Positions 17,357 to 51,660 of a stretch of 64,000 bases of DNA are shown one piece after another. Within the stretch, counting starts at the first letter, position 1. Every line of letters starts with the position of its first letter. The stretch lies in the sequence record MH051916. One strand, 5' to 3'. Made by a program: the position numbers and the translations under genes. The notes beneath the pieces are model-generated. The model saw only the letters and a list, made by a program, of their open reading frames with translations, searched no databases and was not told the DNA's origin. This DNA is from Enterobacteria phage vB_EcoM_IME340.

Positions 17357-17764
17357 ATGAAACAGTTGATAATTAAAAGATTGAATTTATTGATATGTTG
17401 TTTATGTGTAGTAGTTGCATACGGTTATTACGCAATTAATGATTATATGCACTATAAAGATTATGATGTTACTGTAGTTAATACTATTACAGGAACACAA
17501 GGAAAAGGGTCTAGTTTATCGTTTATTGCCGTATATGAACTCAAAGACGGTTATAGATTTAGTGAATATATTTCCCCAGAGATGTATTCTTCAATAGAAA
17601 AAGGTGATAATATTACTGTAAGTTTACGTCCTTTCGACGTAAAACAGACACTGTTTGATAATATTATTTGGTTCTTTGGGATGGTATTAGTTCAATCTGT
17701 GTGTGGTGCTTACGTAGTCTGTTCCATCTTATTCTGTATATTTAGTAAAATTGAAATTGAGTGA
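17357..17764 (+). CDS. predicted membrane protein (135 aa)
   Basis: N- and C-terminal hydrophobic helices. Confidence 0.55.
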   Translation: MKQLIIKRLNLLICCLCVVVAYGYYAINDYMHYKDYDVTVVNTITGTQGKGSSLSFIAVYELKDGYRFSEYISPEMYSSIEKGDNITVSLRPFDVKQTLFDNIIWFFGMVLVQSVCGAYVVCSILFCIFSKIEIE

Positions 17765-17771
17765 GGAAAAT

Positions 17772-18662
17772 ATGTCAGTCGTAATTAATAATGTCAATGC
17801 AGTAATTAAATCTTTAGTTAATAAAAAAATGATGAATGAATGGACTGTATTTCGTCGTGGAGAGCCAGATAAATTTTTTCATAGATTTAACCCAACTTTG
17901 GATTTGAATGTTATTGACAGAGATGTTCATGCCGAAATTTTAGATAAGTTTAAAGTTGATATTGGCTTTGGATTAGAAAAACATTTACAGCGAACAAATG
18001 GGTCTGGAATGAGTTTATCTAATCGCATTATGAAAGCCCTTAATAAAATTGGAGCGTTGTCTCGTATTAATGCGAGTGAAATCCTTCGTAATTATAATAA
18101 AGGATATGACCTTTATGGTCGACTAATGCCGAAATTATCATTCGATCAAATGATAGCGGATTTGTGGGAAAATCAACGACGATTATTAGCATTAGGCGCT
18201 CGATTAGCTAAAGGTCTAGATAAACAAATGATTTTTAAGACCAATAATACAGAAGACCTTAAATGCTTTAAATTTAGTATTCGTGGAGATGATTATTACA
18301 TCAGAGCTCGCTCTACAGATTATGTTAATATGGGGCATCATCTCTGTTTGGCTTTTGAAGTTTTAAAAGAAGCTGGAACATTAGAATATTCATCTGGTGC
18401 AAAATGCCCTATTGGTTCAAGTTGTATTTTAATTTATCGCCCGGATGAATCCAGTTCAACTAAATTGCCTACGAAACCTGTACCAGTTCGTAGTAACGAA
18501 AAACATTCTGAACAAATTGATTATTTTAATAAACAGATTGAAGAGCTGAATATTTCTATTCAACAATATGACGATGAAATTTTCAGACTATCTGGATTGA
18601 GTAGTAAAGCTAAATCTGAGCGTGAAAAGTTAATTAAAATTGTTGATTTACTTAAATCTTAA
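17772..18662 (+). CDS. coiled-coil-tailed protein, tandem family member 1 (296 aa)
   Basis: start at ATG after GAGGAAAAT; globular N-domain plus C-terminal heptad region. Confidence 0.55.
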   Translation: MSVVINNVNAVIKSLVNKKMMNEWTVFRRGEPDKFFHRFNPTLDLNVIDRDVHAEILDKFKVDIGFGLEKHLQRTNGSGMSLSNRIMKALNKIGALSRINASEILRNYNKGYDLYGRLMPKLSFDQMIADLWENQRRLLALGARLAKGLDKQMIFKTNNTEDLKCFKFSIRGDDYYIRARSTDYVNMGHHLCLAFEVLKEAGTLEYSSGAKCPIGSSCILIYRPDESSSTKLPTKPVPVRSNEKHSEQIDYFNKQIEELNISIQQYDDEIFRLSGLSSKAKSEREKLIKIVDLLKS

Positions 18663-48034: not shown

Positions 48035-48328
48035 ATGAAAAAATTTGTTTTTGCTGCAATTTTTGCTTTAGCTTCTTGTGCTGCTCAGCCTGCTATGGCA
48101 GGTTATGATAAAGATTTGTGCGAATGGTCTATGACTGCAGATCAGACTGAGGTTGAAACTCAGATTGAAGCAGATATTATGAATATCGTTGAGCGTGATC
48201 GCCCTGAAATGAAAGCTGAAGTACAAAAACAGCTTAAGTCTGGTGGTGTAATGCAGTATAATTACGTTCTGTATTGTGATAAAAACTTCAATAATAAAAA
48301 TATCATCGCTGAAGTGGTAGGTGAATAA
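48035..48328 (+). CDS. sp: Spackle (61.3), periplasmic superinfection-exclusion protein
   Basis: 97 aa, signal peptide; MKKFVFAAIFALASCAAQPAMAGYDKDLCEWSMTADQTEVE... matches T4 Sp as recalled. Confidence 0.85.
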   Translation: MKKFVFAAIFALASCAAQPAMAGYDKDLCEWSMTADQTEVETQIEADIMNIVERDRPEMKAEVQKQLKSGGVMQYNYVLYCDKNFNNKNIIAEVVGE

Positions 48329-48340
48329 TTAGAGGTTAGT

Positions 48341-48697
48341 ATGTATAGTTCTGAATTTTCATATTTAAAAATGGAAAAAATTTCATACGATTTTATAGAT
48401 GAAAAGGTTTATTACAGTTTCCATGAACCACGTTTTAATAGTGAGGTTGGGTTTATTGTAGTAAAAGACAATTTTATTTTAAAAATATATTCGGCGTTAA
48501 AGGATTTTCACTACGAAAATATTAACCTAAAATTTGATAAAGAAAACGTTCGAAATTGTGCAGTAACAATTACAGGAAATAAAGATACATGTGTTATGCT
48601 ATCTGATGAAATTAATGATTTGCTAAATGACGCAGAAAGGGTTGCTATTCCATCAATTGATGACCAAATTTTTAATGCTTTTATGAATAGAGGTTAA
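48341..48697 (+). CDS. hypothetical protein (118 aa), 61.2 position
   Basis: ORF-track CDS. Confidence 0.5.
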   Translation: MYSSEFSYLKMEKISYDFIDEKVYYSFHEPRFNSEVGFIVVKDNFILKIYSALKDFHYENINLKFDKENVRNCAVTITGNKDTCVMLSDEINDLLNDAERVAIPSIDDQIFNAFMNRG

Positions 48698-48865: not shown

Positions 48866-49894
48866 ATGTCATCAATACCTTGGATTGATAATGAGTTTGC
48901 ATACCGTGCATTAGCTCATTTACCTAAATTCACACAAGTAAATAATAGTTCAACTTTTAAATTACGGTTTAGATGTCCTGTTTGTGGAGATTCAAAAACC
49001 GACCAAAATAAAGCCCGTGGATGGTATTACGGTGATAATAATGAAGGAAATATTCATTGTTATAACTGTAACTATCATGCACCAATCGGAATATATTTAA
49101 AGGAGTTTGAACCTGATTTATATCGTGAGTATATCTTTGAAATAAGAAAAGAAAAAGGTAAAAGTCGTCCAGTAGAAAAACCTAAAGAACTTCCTAAACA
49201 ACCCGAGAAGAAAATAATTAAATCTCTTCCGTCATGCATTAGATTAGATAAACTGACGGAAGACCATCCAATTATAAAATACGTAAAAGCTCGCTGTATT
49301 CCAAAGGATAAATGGAAATATCTTTGGTTTACAACTGAATGGCCTAAATTAGTTAATAGTATAGCACCAGGAACATATAAAAAGGAAATACCTGAGTCTC
49401 GTCTTGTTATTCCAATTTATAATGTTAATGGAAAAGCTGAGTCTTTTCAAGGACGTGCATTAAAGAAAGATGCTCCTCAAAAATATATCACCATCAAAGC
49501 TTATCCTGAGGCAACAAAAATCTATGGTGTTGAACGGGTTAAAGACGGTGATGTATATGTTCTAGAAGGACCTATAGATTCGCTTTTTATTGAAAATGGT
49601 ATAGCTATTACAGGCGGTCAATTAGACCTAGAAATTGTTCCATTTAAAGATAGACGTGTATGGGTTTTAGATAATGAACCTCGTCATCCTGACACTATTA
49701 AGCGAATGACTAAATTAGTTGATGCAGGAGAAAGAGTTATGTTTTGGGATAAATCTCCCTGGAAATCAAAAGATGTTAATGATATGATTAGAAAGGAAGG
49801 TGCAACCCCTGAACAAATTATGGAATATATGAAAAATAATATTGCCCAGGGGTTGATGGCTAAAATGCGGTTATCTAAATATGCTAAGATTTAA
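48866..49894 (+). CDS. 61: DNA primase gp61
   Basis: 342 aa; zinc ribbon CPVCGDSK...CYNCNYH; TOPRIM region. Confidence 0.9.
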   Translation: MSSIPWIDNEFAYRALAHLPKFTQVNNSSTFKLRFRCPVCGDSKTDQNKARGWYYGDNNEGNIHCYNCNYHAPIGIYLKEFEPDLYREYIFEIRKEKGKSRPVEKPKELPKQPEKKIIKSLPSCIRLDKLTEDHPIIKYVKARCIPKDKWKYLWFTTEWPKLVNSIAPGTYKKEIPESRLVIPIYNVNGKAESFQGRALKKDAPQKYITIKAYPEATKIYGVERVKDGDVYVLEGPIDSLFIENGIAITGGQLDLEIVPFKDRRVWVLDNEPRHPDTIKRMTKLVDAGERVMFWDKSPWKSKDVNDMIRKEGATPEQIMEYMKNNIAQGLMAKMRLSKYAKI

Positions 49895-50091
49895 ATTAAC
49901 CCAACTAAAGCAAATGCTAAATCTACGAATGTATCAAGAGTAACTACTGGAATATTAATACCATGCGCAATAGCAACTGGCGATAAAACAAAATTCCAAA
50001 GTAAAATTCCTATCATAGCAGAAATAGTAAAAGCTATACGTTTTTTATTACCTTTGATGGCATTAACAAGTGCCATTAATTTTTGTACCAT
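49891..50091 (-). CDS. small two-helix membrane protein (66 aa), convergent to gene 61
   Basis: only minus-strand ORF in an otherwise uncoded gap; strong SD AAGGAGG 4 nt before ATG; near-TATAAATA motif upstream. Confidence 0.45.
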   Translation of the reverse strand: MVQKLMALVNAIKGNKKRIAFTISAMIGILLWNFVLSPVAIAHGINIPVVTLDTFVDLAFALVGLI

Positions 50092-50161
50092 ATGTCCTCC
50101 TTATTGCTTTATATATTTATTGTATAATTAATCTACTAATCCATGAATTGAAAGGATATAT

Positions 50162-50812
50162 GTGAATTACCAAAAAATTTACTCGGCTTTAATTACAAAA
50201 GCTAAATGCCGGCATCTTGGCGGATATAAAGAACGCCATCATATAATTCCTAGATGTATGGGAGGAACAGATGGCAAAAACAATCTTGTTGAGTTAACTG
50301 CGCGTGAGCATTTTATAGCTCATAGATTATTAACTAAAATATATCCAGATGTGAGAGGATTGCATTATGCTGTAAATTTAATGCGATATAATAAAGGTGT
50401 TAAATTAACAAGTAGATTAATAGAAACCCTTAAAATCCAAAACTCCGTTCTTTTCTCGGGTGAAAATAATCCTAGATATGGCAAGCCGTCATGGATTAAA
50501 GGCAAAAAGACCCCAGAAGAAACTAAAGCCAAAATGCGTCTAGCTCATAAAGGTAAAATTATATCCGATGAAGCCAAGGCTAATATGAGTAAAGCCCGAA
50601 AAGGAAGATTTAGCGGTAAAAATTCACCTCGATATGGTTTACCAAATCCTAGGCGAGGAGAAATATGGAATAGTTATGATGCGCTTTATGAATTATGGGT
50701 TTATAATAATAGACCTAAACGCACAAAATTTAATAAAATAGCTGTCAAGGCAGGTTATCCTAATATCTGCTATAGACATATGATAGAAAACTTCATAAGA
50801 AAGGAAAAATAA
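50162..50812 (+). CDS. HNH homing-type endonuclease with NUMOD-like repeats
   Basis: HNH core HHIIPRCMGGTDGKNNLVELTAREHFIAH; repeated NPRYG / NSPRYG motifs; GTG start after AGGA. Confidence 0.7.
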   Translation: MNYQKIYSALITKAKCRHLGGYKERHHIIPRCMGGTDGKNNLVELTAREHFIAHRLLTKIYPDVRGLHYAVNLMRYNKGVKLTSRLIETLKIQNSVLFSGENNPRYGKPSWIKGKKTPEETKAKMRLAHKGKIISDEAKANMSKARKGRFSGKNSPRYGLPNPRRGEIWNSYDALYELWVYNNRPKRTKFNKIAVKAGYPNICYRHMIENFIRKEK

Positions 50813-50813
50813 C

Positions 50814-51332
50814 ATGCCACATTTCAACGAATGTAGTCAACTGATCGCTGGTGCAGATAAAGCTCAAAATGAATATTGGGATATTCTCGGTGACGAAAAA
50901 GACCCGCTGCAGGTTATGCTTGATATGCAGAAATCTCTACAGGTTCGTTTAGCTAAAGATAAACCTGAATATAATCGTCATCCTGATGATTTGGCTACTG
51001 CTGGTGAAGTTGTTGATTGGCTGCGTAATCAGAAAGATTATATTGACGATGAATTCCGTGAACTTCTGACATCTCTTGGTGGTATGAGCAATGGCGAAAA
51101 AGATGCATCTGCTGTATGGAAGCCTTGGAAAGCTCAACATGGTGAACGTCGTGAAACTCTGATTACTGATTTGTCTCCACAAGACCAGTTGGAAATTAAA
51201 TTCGAAATGATTGATATTCTTCATTTCGTTCTGAACATGTTCCAAGGTCTTGGTCTTACGGCTGAAGAAATCTTTAAACTTTATTATCTGAAAAATGCTG
51301 AAAACTTCGCTCGTCAAGACCGAGGTTATTAA
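50814..51332 (+). CDS. 56: dCTPase/dUTPase gp56 (MazG-like)
   Basis: 172 aa, position upstream of soc; sequence consistent with T4 gp56 as recalled. Confidence 0.85.
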   Translation: MPHFNECSQLIAGADKAQNEYWDILGDEKDPLQVMLDMQKSLQVRLAKDKPEYNRHPDDLATAGEVVDWLRNQKDYIDDEFRELLTSLGGMSNGEKDASAVWKPWKAQHGERRETLITDLSPQDQLEIKFEMIDILHFVLNMFQGLGLTAEEIFKLYYLKNAENFARQDRGY

Positions 51333-51376
51333 TAGCTCGTTTATTTAAACGACGACTTAAAAGCCGCGAGAATTAT

Positions 51377-51384
51377 TATAAATA
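51377..51384 (+). promoter_or_regulatory. late promoter for soc
   Basis: exact TATAAATA 31 nt upstream of soc ATG. Confidence 0.7.
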
Positions 51385-51414
51385 ATCATGTAATTTAAAT
51401 AAAAGGAGAATTAC

Positions 51415-51660
51415 ATGGCTAGTACTCGCGGTTATGTTAATATCAAAACGTTTGAGCAGAAATTAGATGGAAATAAGAAAATTGAAGGAAAGGAAATTTC
51501 TGTAGCTTTCCCTCTTTATTCTGACGTTCACAAAATTTCTGGCGCTCATTACCAGACATTCCCTTCAGAAAAAGCAGCATATACTACTGTATATGAAGAA
51601 AATCAACGTACTGAATGGATTGCTGCAAACGAAGATTTGTGGAAAGTAACTGGCGGTTAA
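51415..51660 (+). CDS. soc: small outer capsid protein Soc
   Basis: MASTRGYVNIKTFEQKLDGNKKIEGKEISVAFPLYSDVHKISGAHYQTF... matches T4 Soc as recalled. Confidence 0.9.
   Translation: MASTRGYVNIKTFEQKLDGNKKIEGKEISVAFPLYSDVHKISGAHYQTFPSEKAAYTTVYEENQRTEWIAANEDLWKVTGG

Follow-up and report, generated by a model that had tools for sequence, protein, structure and literature searches.

We analysed the interval between gene 61 (DNA primase) and gene 56 in a 64-kb stretch of DNA from Enterobacteria phage vB_EcoM_IME340 (record MH051916). This whole stretch is called the window below; coordinates refer to it unless another genome or locus (L numbers) is named, and its plus strand is the direction of early and middle transcription in T-even phages. 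The interval most likely holds two independent elements on a T-even backbone lacking dam: a gene for a free-standing HNH endonuclease that appears to be mobile (the HNH gene) and, on the minus strand, a conserved gene for a small membrane protein of 66 aa, called ORFw here. We give a probability of about 0.8 to this explanation of the interval. Both genes are ordinary for T-even phages.

Insertion and transfer of the HNH gene

Alignment of the window with T4, ELT1, IME537, fPS-2, W143, Sf23 and SA20RB defined an insertion of 649 bp. It is bounded by two copies of GAAAGGA (50150-50156 and 50799-50805), the right one of which lies inside the 3′ end of the HNH gene and restores a Shine-Dalgarno (SD) sequence for gene 56. 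The spacing between ORFw and gene 56 is 722 nt in the window, compared to 73 nt in W143. A synthetic empty site, in which the window up to 50156 was joined to the sequence from 50806 onwards, gave an uninterrupted match of 93-97% in relatives such as W143, F13076 and KIT06. With a coverage of at least 80%, this empty site matched 321 records, about 27 of which carry the HNH gene and match in two pieces. Synteny comparison showed that the HNH gene is not kept in all relatives: a contiguous empty site was found in about 290 Tequatrovirus records, and a close HNH homologue (at least 90% aa identity) in 54 phage records. According to the T4 record, the element is absent from the dam/56 junction of that phage. 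A rough partition of the Tequatrovirus records gave about 27 with the HNH gene and no dam, about 294 with neither, 3 with both, and about 179 with dam only. The features of the interval are the following.

48866-49894, plus strand: gp61 DNA primase, the left conserved neighbour; a 342-aa open reading frame (ORF), annotated as DNA primase in every matching record, with a weak Pfam DNAG_N match
49891-50091, minus strand: ORFw, predicted small membrane-protein gene of 66 aa, ATG start, convergent with gene 61; homologue of RB69ORF029w
50054-50084, plus strand: terminator-like hairpin and T-run for gene 61 transcripts, within codons 3-13 of ORFw, from a consensus scan
50096-50102, minus strand: SD sequence AAGGAGG of ORFw, 4 nt before the ATG, read directly from the sequence
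50104-50128, plus strand: T4-type middle promoter, with MotA box TTGCTTT (50104-50110), 12-nt spacer and -10 TATAAT (50123-50128)
50114-50121, minus strand: AATAAATA, putative late-promoter-like motif for ORFw, beginning 30 nt upstream of the ATG
50150-50156, plus strand: GAAAGGA, left copy of the 7-bp repeat and left insertion junction; original SD of gene 56, now that of the HNH gene
50157-50805, plus strand: inserted segment of 649 bp, with all but the last 7 nt of the HNH gene; its right end is the second GAAAGGA (50799-50805)
50162-50812, plus strand: predicted MobD-like free-standing HNH/NUMOD3 homing endonuclease gene, 216 aa, GTG start
50814-51332, plus strand: gp56 dCTPase/dUTPase, the right conserved neighbour, from the ORF and annotations; 50814-50865 travels with the HNH gene

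The same junction was found in four backgrounds, namely dam-less Tequatrovirus, Tequatrovirus with dam, Mosigvirus SSE1 and Klebsiella Jiaodavirus, and a 78%-identical homologue of the HNH gene occupies the same interval in a Dhakavirus. Up to GAAAGGA, the upstream flank is each genus's own native sequence, and matches from dam-containing, HNH-less phages end exactly at GAAAGGA. The middle promoter upstream of the junction corresponds in alignment to T4 P(M)16.53 (mot box and -10 annotated in X01416.1), and the fPS-2 and SA20RB records also place a middle promoter at this site. In the window, this promoter now reads into the HNH gene, then gene 56.

In a sliding comparison with the window, identity across the HNH gene was 0.97-1.00 for SSE1 (a copy 99-100% identical at the nucleotide level) and 0.76-0.99 for Jiaodavirus, compared to only 0.35-0.9 in the primase gene, ORFw and the rest of gene 56 (0.5-0.8 for SSE1). 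The tract of high identity extends 36-52 nt into gene 56. ATGCCACATTTCAACGAATGTAGTCAACTGATCG is common to all HNH-carrying phages in three genera, and downstream of it each phage reverts to the sequence of its own genus. End points are nested: the gene 56 tract of the window runs to +52, matching Jiaodavirus GCTGGTGCA, and that of SSE1, fPS-2 and other HNH-carrying Tequatroviruses ends at about +36. Every HNH-carrying phage examined has this linked allele of the gene 56 5′ end. Most dam-less Tequatroviruses without the HNH gene have the other 5′ allele, ATGGCAyACTTTAACGAATGTTCACA (167 records at least 95% identical), and the differences between the two include an AGT/TCA switch of serine codon.

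The first-pass annotation, made from the sequence of the window alone, had described the HNH gene as free-standing and of a typically mobile kind. The identical junction in four backgrounds, the cross-genus identity and the empty sites support this view of a free-standing, sporadic and evidently mobile gene. We conclude from these comparisons that the HNH gene most likely moved recently and horizontally among at least three T-even genera, its mobility being well supported. The pattern has the hallmarks of intronless homing as in the seg and mob genes of T4, free-standing endonucleases which spread by double-strand-break repair with co-conversion of the flanks (PMC2988022). The unusual shortness of the co-transferred flanks suggests that the break would occur very close to the insertion point.

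Family of the HNH protein

Two stretches of the HNH protein match Pfam NUMOD3 (29.5 bits, threshold 20.4), and they correspond to the two N(N/S)PRYG motifs already noted as repeats in the first-pass annotation. The protein matches PHROG 655, ‘homing endonuclease’ (E 1e-59), and is 34% identical to T4 MobD over its full length (E 4e-34). In a 40-sequence alignment including homologues at 34-92% identity, residues E24, H26, H27, N41, E49, H50 and H54 were invariant. In the AlphaFold2 (AF2) model, residues 24-60 form a beta-beta-alpha unit (pLDDT above 90), and structural matches of the protein to HNH domains were weak. No significant sequence match was found to PDB chains, and NCBIfam gave nothing useful for this protein or for ORFw. 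Many GenBank records already label the gene ‘homing endonuclease’; the literature search found no publication on this particular enzyme. From its sequence relationships, we classify the HNH gene as a newly recognised, MobD-like member of the Mob-type free-standing homing endonucleases, with a predicted activity.

With MobD, the protein shares an N-terminal HNH domain (MNYxKIY...HHIIP...NLV.LTAREHFIAH) and a C-terminal domain (W..YD.LY.LW...NRPKR...GYP). It differs from MobD by the two NUMOD3 repeats of its mid-region and by its site, which is between ORFw or dam and gene 56 instead of between nrdC.11 and mobD.1; the HNH gene is not in T4. Like the T4 Mob genes (MobA to MobE), it is free-standing, lies between conserved genes in the orientation of its neighbours, and has a phage middle promoter upstream (PMC2988022). 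Unlike them, it has its insertion point exactly at an SD, and the flanks transferred along with it are very short. Free-standing endonucleases are described as cutting hundreds to thousands of bp away from their own genes, and none of the 15 endonucleases listed for T4 is at dam/56 (PMC2988022).

T4 SegF is likewise a free-standing endonuclease flanking gene 56, which is its documented target (soc/56; Table 1, PMC2988022). It differs in being of the GIY-YIG family and on the opposite side of gene 56; segF is missing from the window, where soc follows gene 56 directly. A second HNH gene of 278 aa occurs in fPS-2 (L003:3620-4456) where T4 has segF, and overlaps gene 56 at its 3′ end; the corresponding stretch of the window (51332-51415) lacks it. 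Gene 56 can, to judge from these arrangements, be flanked by endonuclease genes on both sides, and appears to be a contested locus. I-HmuI and I-TevIII also combine an HNH catalytic core with NUMOD-type DNA-binding modules, and their insertion point, as here, is apparently at or very near the presumed target, but they are intron-encoded, whereas the HNH gene of the window is free-standing and without intron.

Two further observations concern the ends of the HNH gene. An ATG-TGA start-stop pair (ATATGTGAAT, 50160-50165) overlaps its GTG start and is conserved in all HNH-carrying copies; this pair may dampen translation of the endonuclease. In SSE1 (L009:2564-3736), one A fewer before the HNH stop (GAAAATAACATG compared to GAAAAATAACATG) produces an in-frame HNH-gp56 fusion, which is annotated as a single coding sequence of 1173 nt; the fusion may be genuine, or may come from a sequencing error in the homopolymer.

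Several points weigh against an active homing endonuclease travelling with an immunity allele. The Pfam HNH match (residues 23-43) is below threshold, with 14.7 bits compared to 21.4. The overlap of the GTG start with the ATG-TGA pair suggests a weak expression of the gene, and T4 MobD is itself without demonstrated activity (Table 1, PMC2988022). The linked gene 56 allele is also found without the HNH gene, in about 30 Tequatrovirus records (e.g. Sf23, W143) and in HNH-less Jiaodaviruses (LilPanda). It could be just a lineage or donor allele instead of an immunity allele, and transfer may have run from Jiaodavirus to Tequatrovirus or the reverse; empty sites with the linked allele could represent the original state or could have arisen when the HNH gene was precisely lost.

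Some of these traits would also suit an immobile relic or domesticated nuclease, inherited vertically and kept because the ribosome binding site (RBS) of gene 56 needs the 3′ end of the HNH gene. A deletion of the HNH gene must indeed be precise to preserve the gene 56 SD, the start is overlapped by the start-stop pair, MobD-type enzymes have no proven activity, and SSE1 has lost the HNH stop to the gp56 fusion. We nevertheless regard such a relic as unlikely, as only recent horizontal transfer fits the 99-100% nucleotide identity between the Tequatrovirus and Mosigvirus HNH genes next to flanks at 50-80%. Moreover, the junction is the same in four backgrounds, the catalytic residues are all invariant, and each of the copies examined retains an intact ORF. 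It is possible that ordinary homologous recombination, unaided by the enzyme, brought about the transfer.

ORFw and the dam-less backbone

The minus-strand ORF of 66 aa with a strong AAGGAGG SD, first reported from inspection of the sequence, is present at 49891-50091, and its stop codon overlaps that of the primase gene in TTAA. It had been singled out as the only convincing minus-strand gene. The window contains 63 minus-strand ORFs of at least 60 aa, and among them ORFw alone lies outside plus-strand ORFs (overlap 0.02). By tblastn, ORFw was found in 691 phage records (full length in 685 of them), always convergent with the 3′ end of gene 61. In T4 it lies at 17738-17938 (94% aa identity), in the 309-nt gap between dam and gene 61, and is unannotated in both AF158101.6 and NC_000866.4. 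The RB69 counterpart is ORF029w (65 aa, 55% aa identity), with neither dam nor the HNH gene nearby, and homologues are found at the same position in Gaprivervirus, Dhakavirus and Jiaodavirus. The Gaprivervirus VR25 has two tandem minus-strand ORFw paralogues between genes 56 and 61 (VR25_031 and VR25_032; L007:1495-1901). In SP18 (L006), the second copy looks degenerate, and the ORFw of the Dhakavirus belongs to the second subtype.

Pairwise dN/dS of ORFw was 0.10-0.20 within Tequatrovirus and about 0.3 between genera, with more synonymous than non-synonymous changes for every Tequatrovirus pair. Together with its occurrence in 691 records, this argues that the ORF is a real gene, as first proposed. 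Five genera, at 45-55% aa identity, retain a length of 63-66 codons, the start codon and a GGAGG SD, and the proteins have the conserved motif W-N-[FLY]-x3-P-x-A-x3-G-x3-P. ORFw matches phrog_2024 alone (PHROG E 3e-31), a family of unknown function. This family is narrow: only 6 cluster representatives were matched in a set of 1.84 billion proteins. When remote relatives were sought, by word index and by exhaustive profile comparison, T-even-type sequences alone were found (33 close matches, 6 representatives), and homology gave no functional lead. From its conservation, we take ORFw to be a lineage-specific gene for a small inner-membrane protein of T-even phages, absent from the T4 reference annotation.

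This protein had been described as having two membrane helices. The first part of the claim stands: residues ∼19-41 are strongly hydrophobic in every subfamily, follow a basic N-terminus, and certainly form a transmembrane (TM) helix. For RB69ORF029w, one TM segment is predicted, at 21-41 (PMC1524935 supplement). The second part is limited to the T4 type, in which residues 48-66 have a Kyte-Doolittle value of 1.86, compared to 0.5-1.1 in the other subtypes; a second helix is plausible there, and is not conserved across the family. RB69ORF029w (phrog_2024), also convergent with gene 61, is the orthologue of ORFw in position and sequence, and T4-type ORFw proteins differ from it by a more hydrophobic C-terminal segment.

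Upstream of the ORFw ATG, at 24-30 nt, NATAAATA is kept in Tequatrovirus, Mosigvirus and Gaprivervirus amid diverged surroundings. This is a 7/8 match to a TATAAATA-type late promoter, which in T4 late genes is expected about 6 nt before the start of the transcript, in the clockwise or either orientation. From the T4 copy of the motif, GATAAATA, the predicted clockwise transcript would have its 5′ end 6-8 nt further downstream, at about T4 17,717-17,722. An A at -13 is the commonest variant among the listed T4 late promoters (9 of 50; PMC2988020), and relatives of T4 show little conservation of the T at -13 (PMC1524935). ORFw is probably transcribed late and clockwise, opposite to the early and middle genes, from this (A/G/C)ATAAATA promoter variant. 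If true, its mRNA is necessarily antisense to the 3′ end of primase transcripts. Three points speak against late expression of ORFw as a protein: its motif never has the consensus T at the first position, published RB69 late-promoter predictions (Nolan et al.) list none upstream of ORF029w, and transcript or peptide evidence was not found in the literature on ORF029w/ORF030w, T4 ribosome profiling and small ORFs.

In the window, AATAAATA (50114-50121, minus strand) falls between the MotA box and the -10 of the plus-strand middle promoter, within its spacer, making a compact pair of divergent promoters. A consensus scan found no minus-strand terminator after ORFw. Shortly after the ORFw stop, the minus-strand RNA folds at a 13-bp inverted repeat (CAACCCCTGAACA...TGCCCAGGGGTTG, 49800-49855; -25.7 kcal/mol, z -3.6), which lies within the 3′ end of gene 61, lacks a U-run and is also conserved in T4. 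On the plus strand, the gene 61 terminator found by the consensus scan has an 11-pair stem, a 4-nt loop and TTTTTG (fold z -3.4), and a terminator is annotated at this site in the deposited fPS-2 and SA20RB records. Cross-genus comparison showed that this hairpin is specific to Tequatrovirus, and it therefore cannot explain the conservation of ORFw.

In T4, dam is located between genes 61 and 56, as the first-pass annotation had said. It had also stated that no methyltransferase-like ORF is present here, and in a tblastn search of the 64-kb window T4 Dam indeed had no match better than E 1.6. A T4-type Dam (at least 90% identity) was found in 182 phage records, and a dam-less junction between ORFw and gene 56 in about 321 Tequatrovirus records (at least 80% coverage). 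Lack of dam is the commoner state in Tequatrovirus, and not a consequence of the HNH gene or of ORFw. In ELT1 and IME537, two Tequatroviruses with dam, the order is 61-ORFw-(extra ORF)-dam-HNH-56. Since the HNH gene occurs there downstream of dam, it did not replace dam, contrary to what the first-pass annotation implied. A simple deletion of dam from an ELT1-like ancestor was rejected as well: the promoter region of the window matches the dam-less W143/SA20RB backbone, and not the dam-56 spacer.

Some Tequatroviruses with dam have an ORF of 186 aa, not present in the window, between ORFw and dam, overlapping the start of the latter (IME537, L002:1641-2201). Its Pfam match to the DpnII (GATC) restriction endonuclease is weak and below threshold (E 0.0045), and the Shinka record annotates the ORF as ‘putative restriction endonuclease’. 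The T4 spacer upstream of dam (T4 17626-17737; L004:2089-2200) is a 3′ remnant of this ORF. Such an arrangement suggests that dam may have entered the T-even phages within a DpnII-like restriction-modification cassette.

ORFw and the HNH gene are adjacent, both where T4 has dam, and could be taken for a single mobile two-gene cassette that displaced dam. This was rejected on distribution and identity profiles, and we leave it next to no probability. ORFw is found in the 691 records, including T4, RB69 and hundreds of HNH-less phages, its identity between genera is 0.35-0.6, like that of the flanks, as opposed to 0.97-1.0 for the HNH gene, dam lies between the two genes in ELT1 and IME537, and the insertion boundary (50156/50157) is 65 nt beyond the ORFw start. 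The pairing implied by the first-pass annotation thus does not hold, ORFw being a backbone gene with or without the HNH gene and with or without dam, T4 included. It is very unlikely that ORFw is untranslated, the region being kept as 3′ untranslated region or terminator of gene 61, or as antisense RNA. The plus-strand terminator hairpin inside ORFw, its missing annotation in the T4 reference records and the absence of expression data from the literature would agree with it, but not the dN/dS of 0.1-0.2, with synonymous changes in excess in every Tequatrovirus pair, nor the conserved protein motif, nor the tandem paralogue in VR25; besides, frame, start and strong SD are kept in five genera, whereas the hairpin is confined to Tequatrovirus. 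A holin, as a homologue of ORFw is named in one source, a UniRef entry, is more improbable still. The small size and the one or two hydrophobic helices are suitable, but no holin family was matched in Pfam, NCBIfam or PHROGs, the protein ends on hydrophobic residues (...ALVGLI) without a charged C-terminal tail, and not all of the family shares the second hydrophobic segment. ORFw is also not beside an endolysin gene, its neighbours being the primase and dCTPase genes, and t, e, rI, rIII and the spanin genes already account for lysis in T4.

As for the surroundings, the closest deposited genomes are Tequatrovirus phages, the best being vB_Eco-B1.1 (98.8% over 1.3 kb). The local gene order is spackle (48035-48328), a 118-aa ORF, a 61.1 homologue, gp61, ORFw, HNH, gp56 and soc (51415-51660). 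The 118-aa ORF (phrog_4122; 48341-48697) stands where T4 has gene 61.2 (208 aa), with spackle and 61.1 as neighbours, and its resemblance to the 61.2-type family phrog_3781 is limited to the C-terminal part.

Predicted homing at gene 56 and its significance

We infer cleavage by the HNH protein, and its target site, from the sequence comparisons above. The HNH element would take over the GAAAGGA SD of gene 56 and its MotA-dependent middle promoter for its own expression. During a mixed infection, the enzyme would nick or cut the HNH-less genome at or near the translation-initiation region of gene 56, and the break is predicted within a few tens of bp of GAAAGGAAAAATAATGGCA in the S-type gene 56 alleles alone, such as those of T4, T2 and SA20RB-type phages. 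Repair copying the HNH-carrying genome would then transfer the HNH gene together with a few tens of nt of gene 56. Genomes carrying the HNH gene should be immune, since the insertion interrupts their site and the linked allele takes the place of its right half. The overall process would amount to intronless homing with marker exclusion. ORFw, for its part, would most likely act at the cell envelope late in infection, for instance by modulating lysis timing or by excluding superinfecting phage.

The oriA point annotated in T4 (T4 16763; L004:1226), 22 nt into gene 56, corresponds to about position 50835 of the window. It falls inside the tract that travels with the HNH gene, and the 649-bp insertion now separates it from the upstream oriA-type middle promoter. 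A more ambitious joint reading would make ORFw a T4 envelope protein, expressed late and clockwise and involved in lysis timing or superinfection exclusion, and would give HNH-carrying phages a displaced or altered oriA, with the enzyme target possibly at the origin; we consider this combination rather unlikely.

Neither the HNH result nor the ORFw result alters the current understanding of T-even phages. The HNH gene provides a clean natural example of a predicted free-standing homing endonuclease that is always found on the same few nt, at the RBS of the essential gene 56. Given the hundreds of sequenced empty sites and the two gene 56 alleles, its target site, immunity and co-conversion are directly testable. 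Purifying selection and conservation across T-even genera make ORFw a concrete candidate for T4 small-protein studies.

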